A DNA stretch of 64,000 nt. Source: Bdellovibrionales bacterium. Its GTDB lineage: Bacteria; Bdellovibrionota; Bdellovibrionia; Bdellovibrionales; CAYMLA01. Positions 28,276 through 44,470 of the stretch are shown piece after piece. The first letter of the stretch is position 1. Each line of letters starts with the position of its first letter. The stretch lies in the NCBI GenBank assembly GCA_965217115.1, contig OZ244239.1, forward strand, positions 256,001 through 320,000. Reading direction: 5' to 3'. Below the pieces are notes generated by a model. The model did no database searches, was not told the DNA's origin, and worked only from the letters and a program-made list of their open reading frames with translations. The translations under genes were made by a program, and so were the position numbers.

Positions 28276-28514
28276 AAAATCTCCCCTATTGGACGGAGAA
28301 GGATACTAACAAATAGATGTTTTTTGGACAAAAACTAAGGGTTTTGCACTTTTTACAAGTGGCAGATTAGCTCATAATGAGACACCCACGGCAATTACTT
28401 GTGAGAACGGAAATAAAGAGTTCTGCCCGTCAGGAGCAAGTTAAGCCTATGTCAGCTTAGCTGAAAATGGATTAGATCACCTTTAAAGAAATTAAATACA
28501 CTTTGTTTATAAAC

Positions 28515-28543
28515 TTGACATAATTGCGCCTTGCAAATATTTA
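28515..28543 (+). promoter_or_regulatory. Putative sigma70 promoter of the MotB/MotA/FHA operon
   Basis: TTGACA-N17-TATTTA. Confidence 0.4.
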
Positions 28544-28630
28544 AGAACTTCACTTAAAAATCCGAGGCGATTAAAAGGAAGGAAAGCCTTCTTTTAATAA
28601 ACCTTAGGACCTTTAGCTAGGATGTATTAA

Positions 28631-30319
28631 GTGAGCTTTAATTACGACAAGTCAAAGGAGAGTGCAGATCAAGCGACCCAGTGGTCTTCTTACAGTGATT
28701 TATTTATGGCTCTCTCTGTTATTTTTCTTCTCATGTATGTCACTTCAAGTGTTCGTGAAGGCGCCACCAATATTCAGAAATTTTCTCAATATCAAGAATT
28801 AGTTCAGGAGGCTGATGATCTTCGCGAACAAAACCGTGTCTACGATGCTCTCAAAGATGACTACATACGAAAACAAGCCACTGAAAAAGAAACAGCAACA
28901 TACAAAGAGCTCATGAGCAAACTCAACCTCCTACAAGAAAAAAATAAGAATGAGGCCGGCGAGCTACAAAAACAAGCAAATGACAACCGCGACAAGGCCA
29001 AAGCCCTCAACAAATACCAGCAAGTTATTCGAAATATCATCAACAGTAGCTATGTTGCTCGGGCTCGTATAAACCAACGTGATAAAAAAATTGACACTCA
29101 AAAAGAGGTCATCACTCAGAAAGAAAATCTCATTGAAAAACGTATTTCAGATATACGTAAACTAGAAGAGACTGTTAAGTCTAAGAAACGCACTATAGCC
29201 AAAGGTAAATATCAGATTAAGAAGACTAAAACACAGCTTCGACGTAAGATCACGCAACTCAAGCGATCCTACAAAAATCAAAAAATTTCACGCACTAATA
29301 TGCGCAAGAAAATTGCATCCCTTGAAAAAAACACACGGAAGCAGCTCAGATCTTTAAAACAGAAAAACAACCAATCAAAAACTCAGCTAAAGCAAGCTAG
29401 TCGCAAAATAATCTCTGTTAACAATGCCCTTCTTCAAGCCAAATCCACAATTTACACACAGGGCTTAGAAAAAGAAAAGCTCGCTAAACAACTCACTCAG
29501 GAAGCGGAGAGGACACGGAAAAGAATTTCTAAAACAAAAAGAGAATTTCAAGCTCAACGCAAGCTTGATCGTAAACGCTTTAAGAAAGCTCTCTTAAAAG
29601 AGGCCCTTTCAAAAAAACAGATCGCTCAAAAAGAGAAGAGATTTCGACAACAAACTCAGAAAAAACAACTTCAGCTTAAACAGAAAGTCTCTAAGCTCAA
29701 GAGGAAAATGGATCTCACTCAGGGCCAACTCCAACGGGCCAAATCGCAAATTCAAGCACGCCAAAAACTGGCCCAACAGATTCTTCGTAATTTTAAGAAA
29801 ACAGGTGTCGCAGCACAGGTAAATCCACGCACAGGAGATGTGGTTCTGTCTTTTGGCAAGCAGTACTTTAAAACAGGTGGCTCCAAGTTAAACCCAGAAA
29901 TGGTCGCCCAACTTAAAAAATTCATGCCTATTTATGCAAAAAGCCTCTTTCAGAACTCCAAGATGTCCGAAAAAATCAGCAATATTGAAATCATTGGTTT
30001 CGCCTCACCTACTTATAATGGAAAATACATTGATCCCAATAGTTTGAAACCCAGTCATCAAAAGGCAGTTAGTTACAATCTAGACCTTAGTTTTAAACGT
30101 GCCAAGTCCATATTTAATTATATATTCGACATCAATAAGATGACATACAAATATCAAAAACACATTCGTCCAATGGTTAAGGTCACTGGTCGAAGCTTTT
30201 TAGCCGAAGGAGCCCAAGGACGTAATATCGCCAGCAGTTTAAAACAAAAAGAATACTGTAAAAAGTTTAATTGTAAGAAGTCTCAACGAGTTATCATTAA
30301 ATTTAATTTAAAAAATTAG
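28631..30319 (+). CDS. MotB/ZorB-like protein: N-terminal TM with conserved Asp, long Lys/Arg/Gln-rich coiled coil, C-terminal OmpA-like domain
   Basis: WSSYSDLFMALSVIFLLMYV. About 330 aa of coiled coil. YFKTGGSKL...IEIIGFAS...YNLDLSFKRAKSIF. Confidence 0.8.
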   Translation: MSFNYDKSKESADQATQWSSYSDLFMALSVIFLLMYVTSSVREGATNIQKFSQYQELVQEADDLREQNRVYDALKDDYIRKQATEKETATYKELMSKLNLLQEKNKNEAGELQKQANDNRDKAKALNKYQQVIRNIINSSYVARARINQRDKKIDTQKEVITQKENLIEKRISDIRKLEETVKSKKRTIAKGKYQIKKTKTQLRRKITQLKRSYKNQKISRTNMRKKIASLEKNTRKQLRSLKQKNNQSKTQLKQASRKIISVNNALLQAKSTIYTQGLEKEKLAKQLTQEAERTRKRISKTKREFQAQRKLDRKRFKKALLKEALSKKQIAQKEKRFRQQTQKKQLQLKQKVSKLKRKMDLTQGQLQRAKSQIQARQKLAQQILRNFKKTGVAAQVNPRTGDVVLSFGKQYFKTGGSKLNPEMVAQLKKFMPIYAKSLFQNSKMSEKISNIEIIGFASPTYNGKYIDPNSLKPSHQKAVSYNLDLSFKRAKSIFNYIFDINKMTYKYQKHIRPMVKVTGRSFLAEGAQGRNIASSLKQKEYCKKFNCKKSQRVIIKFNLKN

Positions 30320-30326
30320 GAGTTAA

Positions 30327-31298
30327 ATGATGTTTTCACAACAAATTATTCAAGGCATAATTGACAATCTAGTTCTCTTTGCTACAGATCTTCTCCTTCC
30401 ATTAATGCTCTTTAGCTTTGTGCTTGCGCTTATTGTTCGTGGATTGATCTATTACTCTATTTCACGCCATGCATGGTTTGCCCGTGAATTCGAGATGCGC
30501 GTGACGGATTTTCTTGAAACAGAAGATTACCATAAAGAGATCTCATTCTTCCCCACTGTTAAAAGAATTCTAGAGCGCACGTATTATGAAATTTTTGAAG
30601 TTCGCGCTATTATAAAACGACGTAATCCAGACTATATTATGTCCTTAGGTGACCGTGTTTTTCTTATTAATCAAGGTGTCGCTTGGCTTGTTCATGATAT
30701 TCAGAAGCAAGTCCGCCACTTCCGCCATGGAAAATCTGAGAACCCTCCTAAGATTTTACAGATGACAAAGAGTATATTCCAAAAAAATCCAGCCTTTAAT
30801 AGGATATTAGGCCTAGTCCCCGCTGCTCCAGTTAATAATATTCTCAACATTCTTCCTGGGGTTTTTGTCATTGCCGGTATCTTTGGGACTTTCCTAGGAA
30901 TTATGAAAGCCTTGCCCGAACTCGGTGGTATGGACCTCGCTAATGGAGAGCAATCAAAGATGGTCATGGATCAATTTCTTTTAAAGATCTCTTTTGCCAT
31001 GAGTACTTCTTTAATGGGTATCATGCTTTCAGTTTTCCTTAACTTCTATAACACTCTTCTCTCACCCGATAGGAAATTTATAGAAATTGTTGAACGCTTT
31101 GAAAATACGATGGATCTTCTTTGGAATCGATCAAGTAATAATTTACTTCCTGAGAATATCTCTAACTTTGATCAACATAGGGACCCCATTGATGCTCTTG
31201 CCGAGGATGCCATTCAGAGAGAGATCTCAAAAGAGAAAGCACTCTCAAAAAGCGTCTCTCGAATGTCGGAAAAGGTCAATCGAGACAAGGCATCTTAA
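30327..31298 (+). CDS. MotA/TolQ/ExbB (ZorA-like) ion-channel subunit
   Basis: Three TM segments, including LPGVFVIAGIFGTFLGIMKAL and ISFAMSTSLMGIMLS. Confidence 0.8.
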   Translation: MMFSQQIIQGIIDNLVLFATDLLLPLMLFSFVLALIVRGLIYYSISRHAWFAREFEMRVTDFLETEDYHKEISFFPTVKRILERTYYEIFEVRAIIKRRNPDYIMSLGDRVFLINQGVAWLVHDIQKQVRHFRHGKSENPPKILQMTKSIFQKNPAFNRILGLVPAAPVNNILNILPGVFVIAGIFGTFLGIMKALPELGGMDLANGEQSKMVMDQFLLKISFAMSTSLMGIMLSVFLNFYNTLLSPDRKFIEIVERFENTMDLLWNRSSNNLLPENISNFDQHRDPIDALAEDAIQREISKEKALSKSVSRMSEKVNRDKAS

Positions 31299-31307
31299 AG
31301 AAAAATT

Positions 31308-33272
31308 ATGAAAAAAAGTATTCTATTCTGTATTTCTAGATACACTAAGGAGGGACTAGACTTGATCTACGTCAACAAGAACTCCTTTGTCATTGGTCGC
31401 TCTAAGGAGGCTGATGTTGTATGTATGCATAGAGGGGTGAGTCGCAACCATGTACGGGTCTATGCTAAAGGATCAGAAATCCTCATTGAAGACCTTGGTA
31501 CCTCCAATAACACTAGAGTAGACGATATCGTCCTCCCCACTAATGAGCTTATAAAATATACCCCAGGGACAAAATTAAAATTAGGAAGTTGTAACGAAAC
31601 TTATTTCATAGATATGTACCGTTCTGAGCTTTCCATAGAAGAAGAGGCCGATGATTACTACCAGTCTATTAAAGAAAAAGCACTGACTCTACGTCAAAAA
31701 TCTGATAATGAAATCAAAAGTCTTTTCAGTCAAGCTAGGGAAGAAGTTGAAAAATTATATAGACAAGTAGAGAGAGATACAGAGGAAGAGCTCCAAGAGA
31801 AAAGGGCTTCAGCCCGTCAAAAGGCCGAGCAAGAGGCCATGGGCATACTCTCCGTAGCTAAAGCTGAAGCACAGAAAGAACTAAATAAAATTGAGGATGA
31901 AAAGAATGTTCTTCAAAAAAAATTACAGCAGGAATTAGAGAGCGACTTAGAGAATAAACGGAAAAGTAGCCTTGAAGAGATCAAAGAATATCAAAAGAAC
32001 AAAGAGATCGAAGCCGAAGAACTCTTCAAACAGAGTGTCGCTGAGTTTCATCAAAATGCAAATGAAGAAAAAGAACTTCTTCTCAAAGACTCAAAAGAGG
32101 AGAGGGAGCTTCTTCTGAAAAAATCAGAAGAGGAGAGAGAACTTCTTCTAAAAGAATCAGAGGAAGAAGCTGCTCGACTCATCAGCCAAGCAGAGAGTCA
32201 AATAAAAGATAGTCAAGATAAAATGCGTGAAGAAGTCCTCTCTGAACTCAATGACAAATGGACTTCCATCAGAGCTAAAGAACAAGAGTTGGAAACCCAT
32301 AAAGTGGCTCTCATAGATCAAGCTCAAGAGGAGATTGTCGAACTAAAAAGACTTGCTGCCGAAGAAATTCACGAATCTCATAAAAAACAAGAAGAACGAG
32401 AAAAAGAGAGCACTCAACTAAATAGTCACAAGCTAGCATGTCTCCATTTAGAGCAAGTTGAAGAGCACAAAAAACTCCAAATAAAATTAGAACAGAAGAT
32501 GGAACAACATATGAAAACGACAGCTTCTGAAATAACTCTCGAAGTAGAAGGGCTCCTCAGGTCCCGTCTTTCAGGGCTCGTGGCTTTGAGTGGATCTGAA
32601 AAAGAGAGTGGTATCTCCAGCTTAGTACAAGATACCAAGGCACTCTTACTCCAGAAATTACTCAAAGAAGACCCTCGCCATGAAAAGAAAGTAGAAGAAC
32701 ATTTCAGCTTCAATGCTATATCCATAGAGGATGTTAAAATCTGGTGGAAAAGGCCCCACGTTATCGCTCTAGGTAGCTTGGCCATTGCCTTTCTCCTTTG
32801 GAATTTTAAAGGCAACTTCTTTAATTCGACTGGCCCGTCTGCATCAGAATTGTTTGTTCAAAAAGCTCAGGAAAATAGGCAGAAAAATAAATTCACTCCT
32901 AAGATGACACCCGGTTTTAAAGACACCTACACCAAGAATATCCTCTATACTAAAGAGTATCTGGAGACAAAGAACAACTCAAAATATCAAGCTAGCTGGG
33001 TCCTCGAAGCCAATGATTTCTTTGTGACTGAGCTCAACCTAGCTGACAATGCCATTGTGAAGTTTATTGCTCTTGAGTCCAAACTCATTAAAAAATTGAT
33101 CTATCTCAGTCAACATATGGATAATCGAAGTATAGCCTCTGGCCTAGGGTCCATGATCGAAGTTGAAGACAAGGTTACTAAGGAAATGATCTCTATTTTA
33201 GAAGGAGTGGGTCACTTTGAAAAGTTTAAGAAGTTTCGTAAAAAGTTTTACAAAAAATTTACAAGTACCTAA
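31308..33272 (+). CDS. FHA domain + long acidic coiled coil + single TM + C-terminal domain protein
   Basis: FVIGRS, VSRNH, EDLGTSNNT. Glu-rich helix. TM VIALGSLAIAFLLW. Confidence 0.85.
   Translation: MKKSILFCISRYTKEGLDLIYVNKNSFVIGRSKEADVVCMHRGVSRNHVRVYAKGSEILIEDLGTSNNTRVDDIVLPTNELIKYTPGTKLKLGSCNETYFIDMYRSELSIEEEADDYYQSIKEKALTLRQKSDNEIKSLFSQAREEVEKLYRQVERDTEEELQEKRASARQKAEQEAMGILSVAKAEAQKELNKIEDEKNVLQKKLQQELESDLENKRKSSLEEIKEYQKNKEIEAEELFKQSVAEFHQNANEEKELLLKDSKEERELLLKKSEEERELLLKESEEEAARLISQAESQIKDSQDKMREEVLSELNDKWTSIRAKEQELETHKVALIDQAQEEIVELKRLAAEEIHESHKKQEEREKESTQLNSHKLACLHLEQVEEHKKLQIKLEQKMEQHMKTTASEITLEVEGLLRSRLSGLVALSGSEKESGISSLVQDTKALLLQKLLKEDPRHEKKVEEHFSFNAISIEDVKIWWKRPHVIALGSLAIAFLLWNFKGNFFNSTGPSASELFVQKAQENRQKNKFTPKMTPGFKDTYTKNILYTKEYLETKNNSKYQASWVLEANDFFVTELNLADNAIVKFIALESKLIKKLIYLSQHMDNRSIASGLGSMIEVEDKVTKEMISILEGVGHFEKFKKFRKKFYKKFTST
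32064..32162 (+). repeat. 3 x 33-bp coding tandem repeat (11-aa unit EE[KR]ELLLKxSx)
   Basis: gaagaaaaagaacttcttctcaaagactcaaaa / gaggagagggagcttcttctgaaaaaatcagaa / gaggagagagaacttcttctaaaagaatcagag. Confidence 0.85.
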
Positions 33273-38082: not shown

Positions 38083-38613
38083 ATGATGGCAAAGATTCTT
38101 TCTTTAAAAATCAACAATAAAGCTTTCTCGTTAGTAGAACTAATGGTTGTGGTGGCTATTATTGGAGTTTTAGCCGCTGTGGCCGTTCCCGCTTATAAGA
38201 ACTATATAAGAAAAGCTGAAAGTGCAGAAGCTAAGGGTATATTATCTGGTATATTCTCTTTAGAAAAAGCTTATTATGCTGAACATCAGGTATATACCAG
38301 TAACCTTTTAGCTCTTGGCCTAGAGACCCCCAACCTCAAGTACTATGGTCTAGTTGGTTTTATAAATCCTAGTATTCAGGTTAATAACATAATAGCAAAT
38401 CGACCTCTGTTCGGCTTAACTTATTCCAGTCACTTTGCTTCCGGTCAGATACCTACCTATGCTCCATCATCCATGCCTGCAGAAATCACATCGTCACCTG
38501 TGGTTCAGACCTTTGCCGCGGCAGCATTGCTGTTAGAGAACGACACTGATCCAGCAAAGTCTGCATGGTACATTAATGAGAAAAAAATCCTAAGGGAGGT
38601 CATAGACCTCTAA
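38083..38613 (+). CDS. Type IV pilin
   Basis: Prepilin cleavage motif KA|FSLVELMVVVAIIGVLAAVAVPAY, with Glu5 present. Confidence 0.92.
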   Translation: MMAKILSLKINNKAFSLVELMVVVAIIGVLAAVAVPAYKNYIRKAESAEAKGILSGIFSLEKAYYAEHQVYTSNLLALGLETPNLKYYGLVGFINPSIQVNNIIANRPLFGLTYSSHFASGQIPTYAPSSMPAEITSSPVVQTFAAAALLLENDTDPAKSAWYINEKKILREVIDL

Positions 38614-38904
38614 TTTTTTAACTTTATCAGAAAGTGTTTTAACAGTTCAGTCACCCACAGCAAACTGGAACATAACTACAAATTCTATCTATGTATTAGG
38701 CCATTAAAACAAAACTAAAAAAGTGATGGTAAAAGCCTGCTATTTGTAGTCTGGACTTTCCTCCTCCTCTGCTTAAAAAAAACAAAAAGTAGGAACAGGC
38801 TTTTTTATCCCCTGCCCATTAAGTAGCATAGTTTATACTGTTTGCAAATTCTCTCAAGCCTACTGCTGTTTAAGCCCTTTTTTATTACTCTGATAGAGAG
38901 TCGT

Positions 38905-41900
38905 CTAAGGTGTTGTACAATCTGAGATCTCTGTTACTCCAGATTTTAAATTGCCAGAGCTATACAAATCGTAAACAGGAGTGCTCCCATCTTCGACTGC
39001 TTGAAGGGCCGCCTCTATGTTCACTAGACCATGACCAAAAACATTGTCCACGGCATCGGAATCAGCTGTTGTATCAATAACACCAGAGGAGTTAAGATAC
39101 TGTGCTGTATCGACTATGAGTCCTAATAATTCTTTGTTGGTATAAGTTCTATTATATTTAGTATTTGCCTCTATCATAAGTGCCATGATTCCACTGAAGG
39201 TGGCCGTTGCCTGTGATGTGGCTCCGCTACCAGTTTCTAAAATAGATAGGGTGTAATACTTGGCATAACTTCCTGCCAGAGTTCTTAGTGATTCATAAGT
39301 GGGTTCATAGGTGCTAGTGAGAGGCCCTCCTACAACTGCTTGCAATGTAATAATTCCTCCAGAAGATGAACTTAAGTCATGTATATAAGGCGTGAAGAGA
39401 GCCTCATCACCATACCCACAGTCGGGAACTTCGTTAGTGGTCGTGGACGTATTCCCAAGACTAATGCTAAGAACTAATCCTTTGTCGATGAGATCTTTTA
39501 GCTTGCCCTCTTCAGTGCTTCTGACTTCGTCATCGGTAAGACCACTGCCAGATAAACTTAAAATATCAATAGGGTTACTAGCGGCAATATCTAGTGGGTA
39601 TCCTGGAAAATATCCAAGGATAGGAGTTTTTCTGCCACTGTCGTAGATATTCACCTTAGGTGCATAGTTTAACATATAACGCGCCATCTGGGTTCCATGA
39701 TTGTACAGGGCATAGGATTCTAGACTACCTAGATTGGGATTTATCGCATTCGCGTAGGGAAAGGAATTGTTTGGATCAGGTATTTTTTCATGAATAACGA
39801 AGTCAACAATTCGATCAGGCCAGCCCAGTGCTGTAAAGACAACGCTATCATAGACATTACTACTTTTAGCAATAATCTGATCGAAAATTAAAACATTGAC
39901 ACCTGCACCGTAGATCTCTTCATCAGTTGCGTGTGAGTGTTTATGGAGAGTTTTACCCTTAGCTAGTTCACCGATGTGATAAGTACTTAGTCTTGGCCAT
40001 TGAATACGGTTAAACCAATCAGTATGAGTCCCAGTTGCGGCAAAGGTGGATTGAGATTTAATGGTTTCGTGTAACTCAGGAGTAGGGAGAGTTGTGATTG
40101 TTCTAGTCACACTATTTTGCGTGATATCTGTAAAAGTCACTGTAAAGGTCACGGCTGCATCTAAGGGAAGGTTGTAACCACCCTGTCTTCCGTTGAATAT
40201 GAAATAAAATTCAGAAGGTATAATCAGTTGATTGTTTTCTATGGAAAGACTTGGCGGATCTGTGGCCCTCTGGGTGACTAAAGAATAATTAAAATAATCT
40301 TGTCCTTGAGCAGACCCTGTATTGGTGCCTGTATGCTCGGGAAGAAACTGCATAGTCGCCGCCTCTGGTGGACTAAAATGGGGGTTCATAAAGCTTGCCC
40401 CAACGGAATCAATATCGGATAAGAGTGTTCCTGCTGGCAGTGTTATGCTAACATCTTCGTTAAGATAAAAAACATTAGAATTTGTAATAGTAAAATCGAC
40501 ATCAGCAGGACCTATAATATTTGTATTAGCTGAAGACAGCGCGATTTTAAGTTTAAAATTCTCATTAGGTTCATGGATGTTATCCTTGTTAGTGGTTATC
40601 ACAACACTCGTACTTGTTGAGCCAGCGGGAATAACATGGGATTGAGTGTCTATTTTTTTAAAATCTCCAGTCAAAGTGCTTGTATCTCCAAAGGCAGTGT
40701 CATCCTCAGTGGTTAAAAACATTGTCGTGTCTGTTGTTTGTACTTCTGATAACTCTAGAACGAGGGTTTTTTGGTTGCCTTCTTCAGCAATTGGGGAGCT
40801 GTCAGCCCAAATGACCTCTAGAGCAGGGACTATTTGCCAAGATTCACTAAAGAAAACGGCAACACTCCCATTGCTATCTGTAGTCCTTACTGAATACCAA
40901 TAATCGGTGTCTTTTAATAATGTAGAAACACCAAAGTTAGCTGCGACACTCCATGTTGTCTGGGAGAATCCAGGCCAAGGCAAGGCAGATGTAGGAGTCC
41001 AAGGAGAGACATCATCACTTCCTGGAGCGGTTCCCACGGCAAACTCTATTAAACTGTGTACGGTGTACCCGCTAGGGTGAGAGTCAAAGCCACAGGCTTC
41101 TGTTGTGGTAATGGTAAGAGATGGAGCAGTTGCCTGTGTTCCTGTTCCCGAGACGACAAGACCTAGATCAGAGGTTATGCTTGGTCGCCATGAAGCACTA
41201 GATGTGGTTTCTGCTCCAGTACTAGAAACAGCCCTCACATTAAAGAAATAATCCTGTTGAAAATCAGGAAGTGCGGGGCTAATGGATGAAAAGATGTGTT
41301 GCGTATTAGTGCCAATATTTGTCCAACCTATAATATCAGAGCTTTCTGAAGCTGTCCCTAAAGACACCTCGTAATGGTCTAATACATAGGTCGAATTTGT
41401 AGTTACGCTCCAGTCTGCTGTGGGTGACTGAACTGTTAAAGCATCTCCTGATAAAGTTAAAGAATCAATAGTAATACTAGGCGCTTCAGGTGGAGTTGGA
41501 GGTGGAATTGAAGCATACATATCTAAATAATCTTTCAGCTCTTTGGTTGTCCTTCTGCCCTCAAGTGCATCATTAGCGATAGTAGTATGTAAATTGTTAG
41601 CATTAGGATTTAATAAATATTTAAAGATAATCAACCCATCATTGGGGGCATTAAGATCCCCATTGCCATCAACATCTAAAATTGAAGCATGTGTATCTAA
41701 ATAAGCTTTCAGATCTTTGGTTGTCCTTCTGTTAGCATCATTAGCGACAGTAGTATGTAAATTGTTCGCATTAGGGTTTAATAAATATTTAAAGATAATC
41801 AATCCATCATTGGGGCCATTAAGATCCCCATTGCCATCAACATCTAAAGAAAAAGTTGAAGTCTCTGTGGATGACTGAGCTGTTAAAGCATTTCCTGATG

Positions 41901-42195
41901 AAGTTGGAAAATCAGTCTCAATATTAGACGATTCAGGTGGAGGTGTTTCTGTGGAGTCGTCAATACTAGGCGGTTCAGGTGGAGGTGTTCCTGTGGAGTC
42001 GTCAATATTAGACGATTCAGGTGAAGGTGTTCCTGGGGAGTCGTCAATACTAGACGATTCAGGTGGAGCTGTTCCTGGGGAGTTGTCAATACTAGGCGAT
42101 TCAGGTGGAGGTGTTCCTGGGGAGCCGTCATTATTCCCGCCGCTACAGCCTGTTAATAGGGTAAACGCAAGAAGTAATGTGATTTTGCTTTTCAT
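38905..42195 (-). CDS. Mosaic surface lipoprotein: Pro/Ser repeats, two dockerin-like Ca-binding repeats, FN3-like and Calx-beta-like domains, divergent S8 subtilase domain
   Basis: Lipobox LLTGC. LDVDGNGDLNxPNDGLIIFKYL twice. DNIHEPNENF. Subtilase-like GAGVNVLIFD, HGTQMA, SLGN, GATSQAT, DNVFGHGLVN. Confidence 0.8.
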   Translation of the reverse strand: MKSKITLLLAFTLLTGCSGGNNDGSPGTPPPESPSIDNSPGTAPPESSSIDDSPGTPSPESSNIDDSTGTPPPEPPSIDDSTETPPPESSNIETDFPTSSGNALTAQSSTETSTFSLDVDGNGDLNGPNDGLIIFKYLLNPNANNLHTTVANDANRRTTKDLKAYLDTHASILDVDGNGDLNAPNDGLIIFKYLLNPNANNLHTTIANDALEGRRTTKELKDYLDMYASIPPPTPPEAPSITIDSLTLSGDALTVQSPTADWSVTTNSTYVLDHYEVSLGTASESSDIIGWTNIGTNTQHIFSSISPALPDFQQDYFFNVRAVSSTGAETTSSASWRPSITSDLGLVVSGTGTQATAPSLTITTTEACGFDSHPSGYTVHSLIEFAVGTAPGSDDVSPWTPTSALPWPGFSQTTWSVAANFGVSTLLKDTDYWYSVRTTDSNGSVAVFFSESWQIVPALEVIWADSSPIAEEGNQKTLVLELSEVQTTDTTMFLTTEDDTAFGDTSTLTGDFKKIDTQSHVIPAGSTSTSVVITTNKDNIHEPNENFKLKIALSSANTNIIGPADVDFTITNSNVFYLNEDVSITLPAGTLLSDIDSVGASFMNPHFSPPEAATMQFLPEHTGTNTGSAQGQDYFNYSLVTQRATDPPSLSIENNQLIIPSEFYFIFNGRQGGYNLPLDAAVTFTVTFTDITQNSVTRTITTLPTPELHETIKSQSTFAATGTHTDWFNRIQWPRLSTYHIGELAKGKTLHKHSHATDEEIYGAGVNVLIFDQIIAKSSNVYDSVVFTALGWPDRIVDFVIHEKIPDPNNSFPYANAINPNLGSLESYALYNHGTQMARYMLNYAPKVNIYDSGRKTPILGYFPGYPLDIAASNPIDILSLSGSGLTDDEVRSTEEGKLKDLIDKGLVLSISLGNTSTTTNEVPDCGYGDEALFTPYIHDLSSSSGGIITLQAVVGGPLTSTYEPTYESLRTLAGSYAKYYTLSILETGSGATSQATATFSGIMALMIEANTKYNRTYTNKELLGLIVDTAQYLNSSGVIDTTADSDAVDNVFGHGLVNIEAALQAVEDGSTPVYDLYSSGNLKSGVTEISDCTTP
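41506..41848 (-). repeat. Two ~170-bp direct repeats encoding dockerin-like modules
   Basis: Copies start at about 41506 and 41680 (period 174) and are nearly identical apart from a 6-nt indel. Confidence 0.9.
41918..42127 (-). repeat. 5 x 42-bp coding tandem repeat (DSxGTPPPESxxID)
   Basis: Units start at 41918, 41960, 42002, 42044 and 42086. Confidence 0.92.
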
Positions 42196-42235
42196 TTAAT
42201 CTCCCTTTTAGTGAGGACTACTTTTTAGTATCGTT

Positions 42236-42343
42236 CTATTTCCTTGAGAGTCTGTTGAAGATGTTTCTGTGGAACCATTTATTGCTCTGGCTACAGCCTG
42301 TTAATAGAGCAAATATGTATAGTAATGTAATTTTGTTCTTCAT
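42236..42343 (-). pseudogene. Truncated paralogue of the downstream lipoprotein (signal peptide, lipobox, then apparent frameshift)
   Basis: MKNKITLLYIFALLTGCS versus MKSKITLLLAFTLLTGCS. The shifted frame continues GSTETSS, resembling the neighbour's STETS. Confidence 0.7.
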
Positions 42344-42583
42344 TCTGCTTTCCTTACTCTAAACATGTCCATTTTTTTTGTGCACTTCAATCTGTACTCT
42401 ATTTAATAATAACATAATTACTCATGTGTAAGGGTTATTAGTCAGTTAATATAATTTTTTTATCTGACTTAGCTATGTCATGTTATCAATAGTGAATATA
42501 AATTAAACAGTCTTTTTTTTACACTGTTCCCATATGAGACATCGGTTAAAAAAACCGATATCAAAGCTACCACGTAATAGAAT

Positions 42584-42777
42584 TATTAAGACAGAAGAAA
42601 ACATCTTGGGCACAGCACTCTTCCTGGGCGCAAAAAACTCAAAACTCCTATTTTGCAAAACCCTCTCTTTGACGGAGTTCCCCAGAAAAAAATTAACCCT
42701 CCCATCGAAAAAACGACAAATTTATGGAATAACGAATTCATGCCTGTTGCTATATGGGATGACGTTCTTTATATTGT
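42584..42777 (+). pseudogene. Decayed internal copy of the CDS at 44775
   Basis: Aligns to 44872-45067 with about 15 substitutions and one 2-nt deletion (manual alignment). Confidence 0.9.
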
Positions 42778-43009
42778 TCGATGTAAAAATATTAAATACT
42801 AACTTGAAAAAAATAACTTAAATAATCGTAAATCATCTCAAAGGGACAGAGTCTCTGGAAGGCTAGACGACAAGGCCGCTGGAGAACAACACTGTGCATT
42901 GTACGTTGAATTCTTTTAGAAACACCTGTATCAATCAAAAAAATTATAACCGCCCATTGATTAAATCGACGACTGAAAGTTCAACTTTCGGTATTCACAG
43001 GAGGAAAAC

Positions 43010-44470
43010 ATGAATAAAATCAACAGTTTTTTTACAATTGTGAGTTTAACATTATTTAGTGTGATATTTGCCCCTAAAGAATCTAAGGCGCTAATGGCTC
43101 ACTGTATTGATAGCAGTAACTATGAAGTCTGCGAAAATGATCCTATATGTTTAAGACTTAAGCCAACAGTGAACCAAAGCTGTATAACCGATTTTTCTAC
43201 CGTCGATTTAGATGGGGATAAACTAAAAGATGCTGTTTATATATATGAAACAGGAGATGACCTTTATTCTGATCGTGTATATTCCATATCTTGGAATAAA
43301 AATATGGGTAATGGGAATTTTTCTCCCAGACAGGTTATTCGCTCTATTGAGCGAAAGACATTTTTTAAAGGCAAAGAGGAGAGGGGTGCTTCCTTTCCTG
43401 AACAGAGAGCTAACTTAGTTTTAAAAGACTTAGACAGTGATGGATTAATAGATATCGTTTTTTCTTTAGGAAAGGCGGGTTATGATGTTGCTACTGGTAA
43501 TACTTATCCTGGCTACAATGAATTGTTTTGGTATAAGAATAAAGGTGGCATGTCTTTTTCGAGAAAAAAACCATTAATTACTCACAACACAACAGGTGTT
43601 ATAGTATCTACCTTTCTGGAGGATGTTAATGAAGATGGCATTCTAGATTTTGGCTACAGTGTTTTAATTAAAGCCGGTTGGGTCGACAATGTGGAAAACT
43701 ATATTATTATAGGAAAGGGTGGTGGACGCTTTTCATCAGAACCTATTCTTCTTATTTTAGAAGGTGTCGAATACACCACCTTTGGCCTGGCTATTGGGCA
43801 ATTTACAGAAGAGGGGGCTAAGAGTGCGATTTTTCTTTCTTCTTTGTTTGGGAGCTTTCGGGATGGCAGTAGGGCCTACCTTCTTGGGCTAAACCTAAGT
43901 TATGTTCTTGGTGGACACGCCACTCCACCAGAAGATAGAGACGAGTATGCGAAAAACAATACACGAAATAAATTCTACCACTTTGATACAAAAATACATC
44001 TTAAGACTGAAATAGATAAGGCCATTGTGACAGACCTTAATAACGATGGTATTGACGAGTTGTTTTTAAGCCTAAATGGAATATATGGTGGTACCTATCT
44101 TTACACTTTTTCTGGTAATGAGTTTGTGTTTTCTAAAGAAGAACTCACAGATGAATATACAACAGCGGTTATGATAAAGGATGTGGATGGAGATTCCCTC
44201 TTGGATATAGTTTACTCTACTCACCGCTTTCGTAATTGGTTCAATAAACCACGCTATTTAGCATGGAAAAAAAATCAAGGTAATGGGAAATTCTCTTCTG
44301 AGAAGATTATTAAAAAATTACCTGCCGCCAGTGTATTAGGAGCAGTAGAAGATTTAGATGGAGACGGATTGGCAGACTTCATTCTCTTATCAAAAGTAGA
44401 TGGCCAAACTACTTTTACACATTTACCAAACAGCATTCTTTCGTCAGGGCAAGAGGAAGATGCTCATTAA
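43010..44470 (+). CDS. Secreted FG-GAP/VCBS-repeat (beta-propeller) protein
   Basis: Signal peptide and AGGAGG RBS. Repeats DLDGDKLKD, DLDSDGLID, DVNEDGILD, DLNNDGID, DVDGDSLLD, DLDGDGLAD, several followed by W.KN.G.G.FS. Confidence 0.88.
   Translation: MNKINSFFTIVSLTLFSVIFAPKESKALMAHCIDSSNYEVCENDPICLRLKPTVNQSCITDFSTVDLDGDKLKDAVYIYETGDDLYSDRVYSISWNKNMGNGNFSPRQVIRSIERKTFFKGKEERGASFPEQRANLVLKDLDSDGLIDIVFSLGKAGYDVATGNTYPGYNELFWYKNKGGMSFSRKKPLITHNTTGVIVSTFLEDVNEDGILDFGYSVLIKAGWVDNVENYIIIGKGGGRFSSEPILLILEGVEYTTFGLAIGQFTEEGAKSAIFLSSLFGSFRDGSRAYLLGLNLSYVLGGHATPPEDRDEYAKNNTRNKFYHFDTKIHLKTEIDKAIVTDLNNDGIDELFLSLNGIYGGTYLYTFSGNEFVFSKEELTDEYTTAVMIKDVDGDSLLDIVYSTHRFRNWFNKPRYLAWKKNQGNGKFSSEKIIKKLPAASVLGAVEDLDGDGLADFILLSKVDGQTTFTHLPNSILSSGQEEDAH

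Follow-up and report, generated by a model that had tools for sequence, protein, structure and literature searches.

The three-gene operon at positions 28631 to 33272 of the Bdellovibrionales bacterium DNA analysed here (64,000 nucleotides, positions 256,001 to 320,000 of the forward strand of contig OZ244239.1, GenBank assembly GCA_965217115.1; hereafter the window) is tentatively interpreted, with a little less than even confidence, as encoding a Bdellovibrionota-specific membrane machine of three subunits, built on a 5:2 ion-driven motor of the ZorAB lineage whose tail is supplied in trans by the third protein. The three co-oriented open reading frames (ORFs) lie on the plus strand, on which all features of the operon are given, at 28631–30319 (gene 1, 562 amino acids, GTG start), 30327–31298 (gene 2, 323 amino acids) and 31308–33272 (gene 3, 654 amino acids). 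The gaps between them are 7 and 9 nucleotides, as an initial annotation made from the sequence had described, and the motifs quoted in that annotation are all present in the translations: QWSSYSDLFM in gene 1, GIFGTFLG and FAMSTSLMG in gene 2, and IGRS, SRNH and TSNNT in gene 3. Gene 1 is assigned as a B subunit of ZorB/MotB type on the basis of PADLOC, PDB profile searches and blastp, gene 2 as a ZorA-type A subunit without the long tail, and gene 3 as a protein comprising an FHA domain, a helical rod, a transmembrane (TM) helix and a predicted periplasmic helical domain. Their orthologues in Bdellovibrio bacteriovorus HD100 are Bd1167, Bd1168 and Bd1169, respectively.

Five kinds of 5:2 ion-driven motor are understood, those of the flagellum, the Ton and Tol systems, gliding/type IX secretion (T9SS) and Zorya, each of which harnesses membrane energy for a different output. 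By sequence comparison, genes 1 and 2 are a MotAB-superfamily pair of the Zorya branch, with ZorB and ZorA as their nearest relatives; PADLOC, NCBIfam, PDB profiles and Foldseek all point to Zorya proteins, which bears out the earlier description of the pair as MotB/ZorB-like and MotA/ZorA-like. The A subunit has the MotA/ExbB/TolQ fold, and the B subunit beside it carries a TM aspartate, as in other 5:2 motors. Judged from this homology and from the conservation of key residues, it is very probable that the two proteins assemble into an ion-driven A5B2 unit with a peptidoglycan anchor.

Gene 2 matches 18 PADLOC ZorA models (best ZorA1, 2.9e-9, over the channel part only). With NCBIfam it matches ZorA_2 at 1.3e-8 and ZorA subfamilies at 1.3e-8 to 1e-3, with TolQ at 0.91. 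The Pfam family MotA_ExbB is matched at E = 1.1e-4 (22.3 bits), and PF28082 (Pfam 38.1), named ZorA-like_t1 in the Atlas, is precomputed on this protein and on many of its relatives. Single-sequence and profile searches of the PDB returned ZorA chains only (8vvn_C at 6.8e-8; 8qyh, 8qyy, 8qyk and 8qyd at 6e-7 to 3e-6; 8vvi_F at 1.3e-3), and in the profile search no MotA, ExbB or TolQ chain appeared at E ≤ 1. The AlphaFold2 (AF2) model has a mean predicted local distance difference test score (pLDDT) of 81.3. Its top four Foldseek matches are ZorA chains (E ~2e-3, probability 1.0, TM-score 0.44–0.56), followed by TolQ and ExbB, with MotA at rank 50; the top 50 comprise ZorA, TolQ, ExbB and MotA chains throughout, with E from 2e-3 to 0.17 and leading probabilities of ~1.0. 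The modelled structure is thus a three-helix channel fold of ZorA/ExbB/TolQ type, closest to ZorA.

Alignment to ZorA structures places TM2 (LPGxFxxxGIFGTFLG), TM3 (FAMSTSxxGI) and a conserved periplasmic loop within residues 166–246 (30822–31064). Twelve residues, L176, P177, G178, G184, G187, T188, F189, G191, M225, S228, G231 and I232, are invariant in 13/13 aligned orthologues, the GxxGTxxG motif is present in 86/86, and gene 2 is the best conserved of the trio (34–54% identity, compared with 31–45% for gene 1). Only 77 residues follow TM3. They form a short cytoplasmic C-terminal stub (residues 247–323; 31065–31298) with W266, N272, an FDEHRDPxEALAE motif and a final helix; helices are modelled at 247–268 and 287–322, and the last 40 residues have pLDDT values of 61–69. 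The tail of E. coli ZorA, in contrast, spans residues 223–729, some 500 amino acids (PMC11946911), and the initial observation that gene 2 keeps its channel helices with only a short C-terminus therefore holds.

Members of the gene 2 family are mostly 300–450 amino acids long. Seven relatives (P0125, P0151, P0163, P0192, P0194, P0195 and P0266) reach 511–626 amino acids, through C-terminal extensions that are acidic or proline-rich, of low complexity and disordered-looking rather than coiled-coil; in three of them the extension ends in a short helical, heptad-like stretch. The extreme C-terminus is a pair of small residues in 84/86 orthologues (AS in 29, AA in 27, VA in 11, AG in 7, SA in 5, and others; here at 31290–31298), and this conserved free end could mark the protein for recognition by a protease or by a domain that binds peptides. 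The Atlas also holds short ZorA-like_t1 proteins of ~359–409 amino acids, in clusters with Bacillota and Nitrospirota as their commonest phyla, and short-tailed ZorA relatives outside canonical Zorya may thus occur in other phyla too.

The N-terminal 44 residues of gene 1 (28631–28762) comprise a short cytoplasmic segment with an FxYDK motif and a TM helix (hydrophobic stretch 23–41) that carries the channel aspartate, Asp23, in the motif WxxYSDLF. W18, Y21, S22, D23, L24 and F25 are invariant in 13/13 aligned orthologues. Among the 77 gene 1 orthologues of at least 430 amino acids, 72 have W..Y[SA]D[LM], three more have the aspartate in a variant motif and two are cut by contig ends, so the aspartate is present in all 75 that are complete at the N-terminus; the earlier assignment of a MotB-type TM aspartate is upheld. 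Pfam adds a weak match to MotB_plug (E 0.0066, residues 17–44). At the other end of the protein, residues 359–562 give the best stretch of the match to PADLOC ZorB1 (6.8e-25), and a profile of the gene 1 family finds ZorB chains first in the PDB (8vvi_A at 9.1e-5, over the peptidoglycan-binding domain; 8qyd_F at 1.7e-4, over the N-terminal helix; 8vvn_B at 6e-4), followed by coiled-coil noise. By these matches, residues 359–562 are a predicted peptidoglycan-binding domain of OmpA/MotB type. The ZorB-like domain drawn at residues 376–562 (29756–30319) contains the motif YNLDLSxxRA, found in 13/13 orthologues, and a C-terminal CxxxxC, found in 82/84; Y482, N483, D485, L486, S487, R490, C543 and C548 are invariant (13/13). 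Pfam OmpA gives no match to gene 1 at E ≤ 1, but the OmpA-like domain proposed initially is supported by the ZorB profiles and by this motif, which is of N-x2-L-S-x2-R-A type.

Between these two parts, residues 45–375 (28763–29755) form a juxtamembrane segment, conserved to about residue 150, and then a variable, proline-free rod, which we infer from MotB and ZorB topology to be periplasmic. These 331 residues have an isoelectric point (pI) of 10.6, a net charge of +59 and no proline; in 54 orthologues the linker is 222–433 amino acids long, and in 52 of these it too lacks proline. A crude heptad test gives an a/d occupancy of 0.602, compared with 0.491±0.020 for shuffled sequences, which supports a coiled coil. 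If it is one continuous helix the rod would be ~49 nm long here, and straight linkers of 222–433 residues would measure 33–64 nm. The initial description of a very basic coiled coil of some 330 residues is thus correct for this protein but not for its family, since the net charge is only −2 to +5 in 8/12 orthologues; by sequence, a strongly basic rod is limited to this genome and a few others. The idea that the basic rod of gene 1 is complementary to an acidic rod in gene 3 was rejected, since orthologues do not share the basic charge and the membrane is predicted to separate the two rods.

Gene 3 begins with an FHA domain (residues 22–94; 31371–31589) that matches Pfam FHA at 1e-9 (39.1 bits, against a cut-off of 20.7) and has as its best PDB match the FHA domain of a GGDEF protein (6hc1/6hbz, 1.2e-5). 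The phosphothreonine-binding residues, Gly-Arg, Ser-x-x-His and Asn, are all present in the translation as GR, SRNH and TSNNT, and the intact signature noted earlier is thereby substantiated. Phospho-dependent binding by this domain is likely in this genome, judged from the signature; the genome has nine FHA matches and three Pkinase matches, so that kinases are available. The full signature is found in 49/73 gene 3 ORFs. About 14 of the 24 without it belong to a single clade of Bacteriovoracaceae, Peredibacter and Halobacteriovorax, one (L099) has a near-intact variant, and the remainder are fragments or have misplaced starts.

The FHA domain is followed by an acidic, proline-poor helical rod, predicted to be cytoplasmic (residues 106–480; 31623–32747), with a pI of 5.0, a net charge of −27 and a single proline. 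The rod is acidic in 10/10 orthologues (net charge −5 to −55 over 397–992 amino acids); the gene 3 of the window is the shortest seen, and its rod would be ~56 nm long as one helix. A single TM helix (residues ~484–504; 32757–32819) follows a motif rich in Lys/Arg and Trp, KIWWKRP. It is modelled by AF2 as helix 59–80 of a fragment, equivalent to residues 483–504, and most orthologues have a hydrophobic peak at this point. The positive charges that precede the TM helix and the cytoplasmic nature of FHA domains suggest that the N-terminus is inside, with the FHA domain and the rod in the cytoplasm and the C-terminal bundle in the periplasm.

This conserved C-terminal domain of ~130 residues (~525–654; 32880–33272), which bears the motif FxPxxTxxYKxTYTxNILYT, is modelled as a helical bundle with pLDDT values of 94–98 (fragment residues 100–230). 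It has no match in Pfam and nothing in the PDB by Foldseek at E ≤ 1e-3; a wide VIA search gave a best Z of 7.0 (CagA, RsbR-N), within the noise range for helical models, a single-sequence word search matched only the protein itself, and the Atlas gave no usable match. Seven proteins were found with a C-terminal domain of this type, and all six that have a precomputed Pfam match carry an N-terminal FHA domain. Pfam finds no TonB_C in gene 3, the protein lacks the combination of a periplasmic rod with a TonB-C/TolA-III end, and PADLOC gives no match to it.

The three genes travel together. When every ORF of 92 loci was clustered, with at least four of the loci duplicating the same contigs, the only common families were those of gene 2 (90 loci), gene 1 (88) and gene 3 (72), the next family being present in no more than 8; there is no conserved fourth partner, whether kinase, phosphatase or nuclease. 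Gene 1 is upstream of gene 2 in 74/75 loci. Where at least 2.5 kb is available downstream of gene 2, gene 3 is complete in 69/77 loci, directly adjacent and on the same strand in 65, and it runs off the contig end in four more, giving 73/77. The co-occurrence on which the initial proposal depended is therefore found, and the same gene order in dozens of genomes implies that the module is not a chance arrangement. The flanking genes of the window are not conserved with the triad, and flanks vary among genomes.

In its distribution the module appears confined to one phylum. Strong orthologues of gene 2 (E ≤ 1e-49) occur in 22/40 genomes of the same order, and matches at E ≤ 0.001 in 26/41, a count that includes the genome itself and three weak paralogue matches; across the phylum, 90/251 sampled genomes have a match at E ≤ 1e-10. 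A scan of one genome per species yielded 443 relatives of gene 2. Among the best 80, 75 bear Bdellovibrionota names, and the other five are three metagenome-assembled genomes (MAGs) labelled 'Proteobacteria bacterium', a 2-kb 'Auribacterota' contig and a 'Thioalkalivibrio' contig whose matches and their coordinates are identical to those on a Bdellovibrionales MAG contig. The triad was thus not found under any other credible phylum label among these best 80 of 443, and HMMER over 1.84 billion cluster representatives gave only 224 matches at E ≤ 1e-10. On a gene 2 tree of 74 rows the family labels, which are those of the submitters, are clustered, with 10 changes compared with 16.3 in shuffles and none of 200 shuffles doing as well; the window protein groups with Pseudobdellovibrionaceae/Bdellovibrionia MAGs.

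Several smaller observations concern the individual loci. The lengths of genes 1 and 3 co-vary weakly (Spearman 0.40, p 0.003, n = 51 loci), by a statistic that ignores relatedness. The two most divergent loci, L029 (8605–10293, plus strand) and L030 (1679–3271, minus strand), lack gene 3 and have, upstream of gene 1 and near SpoVR-like and YeaH-like ORFs (by eye), a divergently transcribed ankyrin-repeat protein of 530–562 amino acids. This upstream gene was considered as a possible FHA protein and rejected, as Pfam shows ankyrin repeats only. Replacement of the module was also considered for two genomes of one genus (g31) that lack it, G178 and G245; there the flanking genes are ~1.2 Mb apart and the comparison is uninformative.

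Data for the orthologous operon of B. bacteriovorus HD100 show that it is expressed. Bd1167, Bd1168 and Bd1169 are listed at 1107745–1109313, 1109326–1110231 and 1110232–1112616 (PMC3627812), and the HD100 ORFs at exactly these coordinates are by blastp the orthologues of genes 1 (38.5% identity, E 1e-132), 2 (48%, E 3e-103) and 3 (N-terminus E 1e-17, C-terminus E 4e-13). Current annotations call them 'microtubule binding protein', 'hypothetical' and 'large Ala/Glu-rich protein', respectively. A single transcription start site was mapped 17 nucleotides before Bd1167, with 120 reads, and the operon is listed there as 1167-1168-1169 with no FliA site (PMC3627812). Expression in reads per kilobase per million (RPKM) in attack and growth phase, respectively, was 932 and 35 for Bd1167, 1354 and 23 for Bd1168, and 527 and 14 for Bd1169, a ~27–55-fold excess in attack phase (PMC3627812). 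All three proteins were quantified in a proteome study, with 41, 16 and 52 unique peptides, and share a log2 profile that peaks in attack phase, is lowest at 3–4 h (−1.2, −0.9 and −0.7) and recovers at 5–7 h (PMC12546842). An apparent vast excess of the B subunit over the A subunit in this proteome was rejected, because the table is log2-scaled (the 6 h value minus the attack-phase value equals the listed log2 fold change); tandem mass tag intensities are in any case not comparable between proteins. An earlier study took Bd1167 for a crescentin-like coiled-coil protein and found it down-regulated 30 min after the start of predation (PMC2797640).

The genes appear to be dispensable, however, for the activities that were screened. 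The transposon sequencing (Tn-seq) values reported for strain 109J give EP01_RS15535, RS15540 and RS15545 a fitness W of 1.5–2.0 on planktonic and biofilm V. cholerae and E. coli, on a scale where defects were called at W < 0.1–0.5 and neutral controls lay near 1. The operon is thus expressed and stage-specific, and under the conditions of that screen, in a host-independent background, it is dispensable for both axenic growth and predation.

How does this module compare with the known motors? The Zorya ZorAB complexes (with structures for types I–II: 8QYD from E. coli, 8VVN from Shewanella and 8VVI from Sulfuricurvum) are the nearest relatives of both subunits in sequence and fold. They share with the present pair an A subunit of three TM helices, a B subunit with a TM aspartate and a C-terminal, cysteine-bearing peptidoglycan-binding domain, and adjacent genes, and each system includes a long helical rod on the cytoplasmic side, here by prediction. 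There are marked differences, however. The gene order here is B–A; the A subunit has ~75 residues after TM3, compared with the ~500 fused to the channel in E. coli ZorA; a coiled coil of 222–433 residues separates the TM helix from the peptidoglycan-binding domain, whereas ZorB is reported to join the two without a linker (PMC11946911); and the rod is carried by a separate bitopic FHA protein. ZorC/D, ZorE and ZorF/G are absent, as judged by PADLOC and by the clustering of the 92 loci, and the present module is restricted to one phylum and lies outside any defence island.

The closest parallel for the third protein comes from Myxococcus xanthus gliding, in which a 5:2-type motor, AglRQS, is likewise encoded beside an FHA-bearing bitopic protein, GltG (PglI, MXAN_4867). 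GltG combines an FHA domain at its cytoplasmic N-terminus with one TM helix and a domain in the periplasm, and its TM segment is reported to bind AglR in two-hybrid assays (PMC3169522, PMC11761067). The motor described here is, in contrast, ZorAB-like with a peptidoglycan-binding B subunit, not TolQR-like with B subunits of ExbD type; gene 3 lacks both a TonB-C domain and a second FHA domain near the TM helix, its long element is predicted to be cytoplasmic, and no Glt partners are conserved with the triad. The same genome has a separate GltG/AglRQS-like locus at C1:1830856–1834700, with a 681-residue protein, a MotA_ExbB protein (220 residues), two ExbD proteins (157 and 203 residues) and an LptC-like gene. 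The 681-residue protein has an N-terminal FHA domain, a second FHA-like stretch, a TM segment, a Lys-rich linker and, by eye, a TonB-C-like end; beyond the FHA domain it has no similarity to gene 3 (E 1.1), which is not a close paralogue of it. Three consecutive FHA proteins are encoded at C1:866212–874521 (541 residues; 322 with TPR; 677 with two FHA stretches), ~2.6 kb upstream of a MotA_ExbB/ExbD pair. With these, three sites in this 2.17-Mb genome have FHA proteins close to a 5:2 motor.

With the TolQ–TolR–TolA and ExbB–ExbD–TonB systems the module shares the plan of a ring of A subunits, a dimer of B subunits with a TM aspartate and a single-pass, N-in third protein that has a rod and a terminal domain, and in fold searches TolQ and ExbB come next after ZorA as matches of gene 2. 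The rods of TolA and TonB are periplasmic, however, with terminal TonB-C/TolA-III domains extending to the outer membrane, and TolR and ExbD have no OmpA-like domain; here it is the B subunit that would have the periplasmic rod, and the third protein a cytoplasmic one. The likeness to MotAB and PomAB lies in the ion-driven 5:2 principle and in the B subunit, with its Asp-bearing TM helix, post-TM segment, linker and peptidoglycan-binding domain. Gene 2, by contrast, has three TM helices rather than four, and its profile matched no MotA chain at E ≤ 1, while Foldseek placed MotA only at rank 50; flagellar genes are absent from the surroundings, and the HD100 operon lacks a FliA site. A survey of MotAB relatives left ZorAB out of the trees it presents (PMC12505986). 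The initial suggestion that the operon is unlike any characterised system stands: there was no characterised match, and no description of the triad as a motor was found in the literature searched, which did not extend to subscription-only papers or bioRxiv supplements.

From these comparisons we tentatively prefer the following mechanism. Five gene 2 subunits would surround two gene 1 helices, and ion flow past Asp23 would turn the A ring against the B dimer, which would be held on the cell wall through its periplasmic coiled coil of 33–64 nm and its peptidoglycan-binding domain. Gene 3 would be the third subunit, its single TM helix docking on the outer face of the A ring in the manner of TolA, TonB and GltG on their own motors, and its cytoplasmic helical rod of 55–150 nm, tipped with the FHA domain, would replace the fused tail of ZorA. 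The state of the wall anchor would gate the motor, whose activity could then move or twist the rod and so control a partner bound to the FHA domain, which would be a phosphoprotein in most lineages and a phospho-independent ligand where the phosphothreonine-binding residues have been lost. That gene 3 supplies the tail or load in trans is plausible by analogy with GltG, and in this genome its rod, as one helix, would be of the same order of length as a ZorA tail, and longer in orthologues. The most likely role would be that of a sensor or transducer of envelope state in the free-living cell of the attack phase, a role that predation on laboratory prey does not require.

Several findings weigh against this interpretation. 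The MotA_ExbB score of gene 2 falls just under the Pfam cut-off of 22.9 bits, and NCBIfam ZorA models score it at 18–34 bits, compared with cut-offs of 100–750 (34 against 100 for the best). The rod of gene 1 far exceeds the distance of ~9 nm reported between inner membrane and wall in E. coli (PMC11946911), implying that a simple 'stator post' would need the rod to be oblique, to lie flat along the wall or to be folded back. The heptad occupancy of the gene 3 rod, 0.534 compared with 0.517±0.018 in shuffled sequences, is not clearly above background; of the ~350-residue acidic coiled coil described initially, the acidity is confirmed, over some 375 residues, but the coiled coil is not, and the rod may be a charged single helix instead. 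Gene 3 was not found beside the pair in 4/77 loci (L029, L030, L044 and L089), and within genera the module is patchy, being present in 12/14 genomes of g31 and 5/8 of g11. The Bacteriovoracaceae/Peredibacter/Halobacteriovorax clade of ~14 members keeps an FHA-like N-terminus without the Arg, Ser/His and Asn needed for phosphothreonine, implying that the conserved core of the system does not lie in phospho-dependent binding; the coupling to phospho-signalling suggested at the outset is therefore supported in this genome by the intact signature but is not general. Finally, transposon mutants of the triad have no predation defect among the reported 109J fitness values, so that any role must be conditional. 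The suggested part in predation or motility finds no support there, although its attack-phase-specific expression links the module to the stage at which the cell hunts.

Could the operon instead be a fourth kind of Zorya, an anti-phage system in which the motor senses phage at the envelope of the free-living cell and the FHA-rod protein takes the place of the tail and recruits an effector encoded elsewhere? Both motor subunits are nearest to Zorya proteins, and the patchiness within genera, the dispensability for axenic growth and predation, and the expression in a phage-exposed stage would all be consistent with defence. We nevertheless consider it unlikely. No nuclease or other effector is conserved, the next most frequent family reaching at most 8/92 loci, and neither gene 3 nor the neighbouring genes have a specific PADLOC match; the flanks are housekeeping genes here and differ between genomes, with no island context. 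The restriction to one phylum and a tree that follows family labels do not suggest wide transfer, and the attack-phase mRNA is abundant (RPKM 527–1354). Moreover, the ZorA tail and the linker-less form of ZorB, both reported to be needed for Zorya function, are absent here.

The dominance of long helical rods of variable length in genes 1 and 3 points to a different possibility, that these two proteins tether the wall to the inner membrane and organise the cytoplasmic face, setting the envelope spacing, shape or stiffness of the small, fast-swimming attack-phase cell, with a channel that has little or no motor role and to which gene 3 does not bind. The crescentin-like reading of Bd1167 and its fall on prey entry (PMC2797640), the attack-phase-specific expression and the weak co-variation of rod lengths between genes 1 and 3 noted above (n = 51, relatedness ignored) are in keeping with this. 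A mainly structural role is doubtful, however, when the residues of the ion pathway are so strictly kept (the aspartate in all complete orthologues, GxxGTxxG without exception), when it is gene 2 that is best conserved of the trio, which would be unexpected of a vestigial channel, and when the Tn-seq screen reports no shape or growth phenotype for these genes. An accessory motor for movement or prey entry, in which gene 3 would be a GltG-like link to a cytoplasmic track, is improbable in spite of the architectural parallel with AglR5QS–GltG, the restriction to a predatory phylum and the attack-phase operon, given insertion fitness values of 1.5–2.0 in a screen that scored gliding and pilus genes as defective, the lack of conserved Glt-type periplasmic or outer-membrane genes alongside, the lack of TonB-C in a gene 3 whose long part is predicted to be cytoplasmic, and the presence of a separate GltG/AglRQS-like locus in the genome.

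A further proposal, rather speculative and in our view unlikely to be right as it stands, is that this split motor of Zorya type is a rotary, trans-envelope mechanosensor of the hunting cell. The periplasmic coiled coil of ~50 nm would sense deformation or breach of the envelope, on prey contact, phage attack or osmotic insult, and gate the flow of ions; the rotating A ring would drag the cytoplasmic rod of ~55–150 nm, and the FHA tip would capture or release a phosphoprotein, converting proton-motive force into a cytoplasmic signal. If so, the Zorya motor lineage would here be put for the first time to a use other than defence, and this would be the first 5:2 motor to have its output shaft as a detachable subunit.

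The Zorya motor lineage also exists as a vertically inherited, highly expressed and stage-specific operon in predatory bacteria. Its architecture there is different, with a very long predicted periplasmic stalk on the anchor and the tail apparently moved to a separate, FHA-tipped membrane protein. If the tail is indeed supplied in trans, as we tentatively prefer, the module would allow the transmission of motor activity by Zorya-type tails to be studied as a natural experiment, and would link a rotary motor to Ser/Thr phospho-signalling. It is also directly testable, as Bd1167–Bd1169 lie in the genetically tractable strain HD100, with transcript, proteome and Tn-seq data in place.

The operon is preceded by an intergenic region of 355 nucleotides (28276–28630, plus strand), read directly from the sequence and presumed to hold its promoter and leader; a scan of this region for the sigma-70 consensus gave no strong match. 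Four sequencing runs, all from one study, contain the DNA of this genome, and no RNA run is listed for it. A convergent gene ends 7 nucleotides downstream of gene 3. The neighbours of the operon, over 12–50 kb of the window, are ordinary housekeeping genes, with Pfam matches to DnaE, GuaA, GuaB, a MiaB-like protein, a DEAD helicase, two ABC exporters, asparaginase, 2-thiouracil desulfurase, Grx2, HtpG, a methyltransferase, TsaE, PdxJ, GlmM, DAC cyclase and FtsH. PADLOC gave only generic cross-hits to an ATPase, a helicase and a methylase in this interval, and the initial statement that no flagellar, Ton/Tol or Zorya effector genes are nearby holds across it; Rfam and tRNA scans of the window found nothing. 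Some 5 kb downstream of the operon, clustered in 38083–44470, are three more ORFs: a pilin-like protein with an N-terminal methylation motif (38083–38613), a protein of 1096 residues with a weak subtilase end (38905–42195, minus strand) and an FG-GAP repeat protein (43010–44470).

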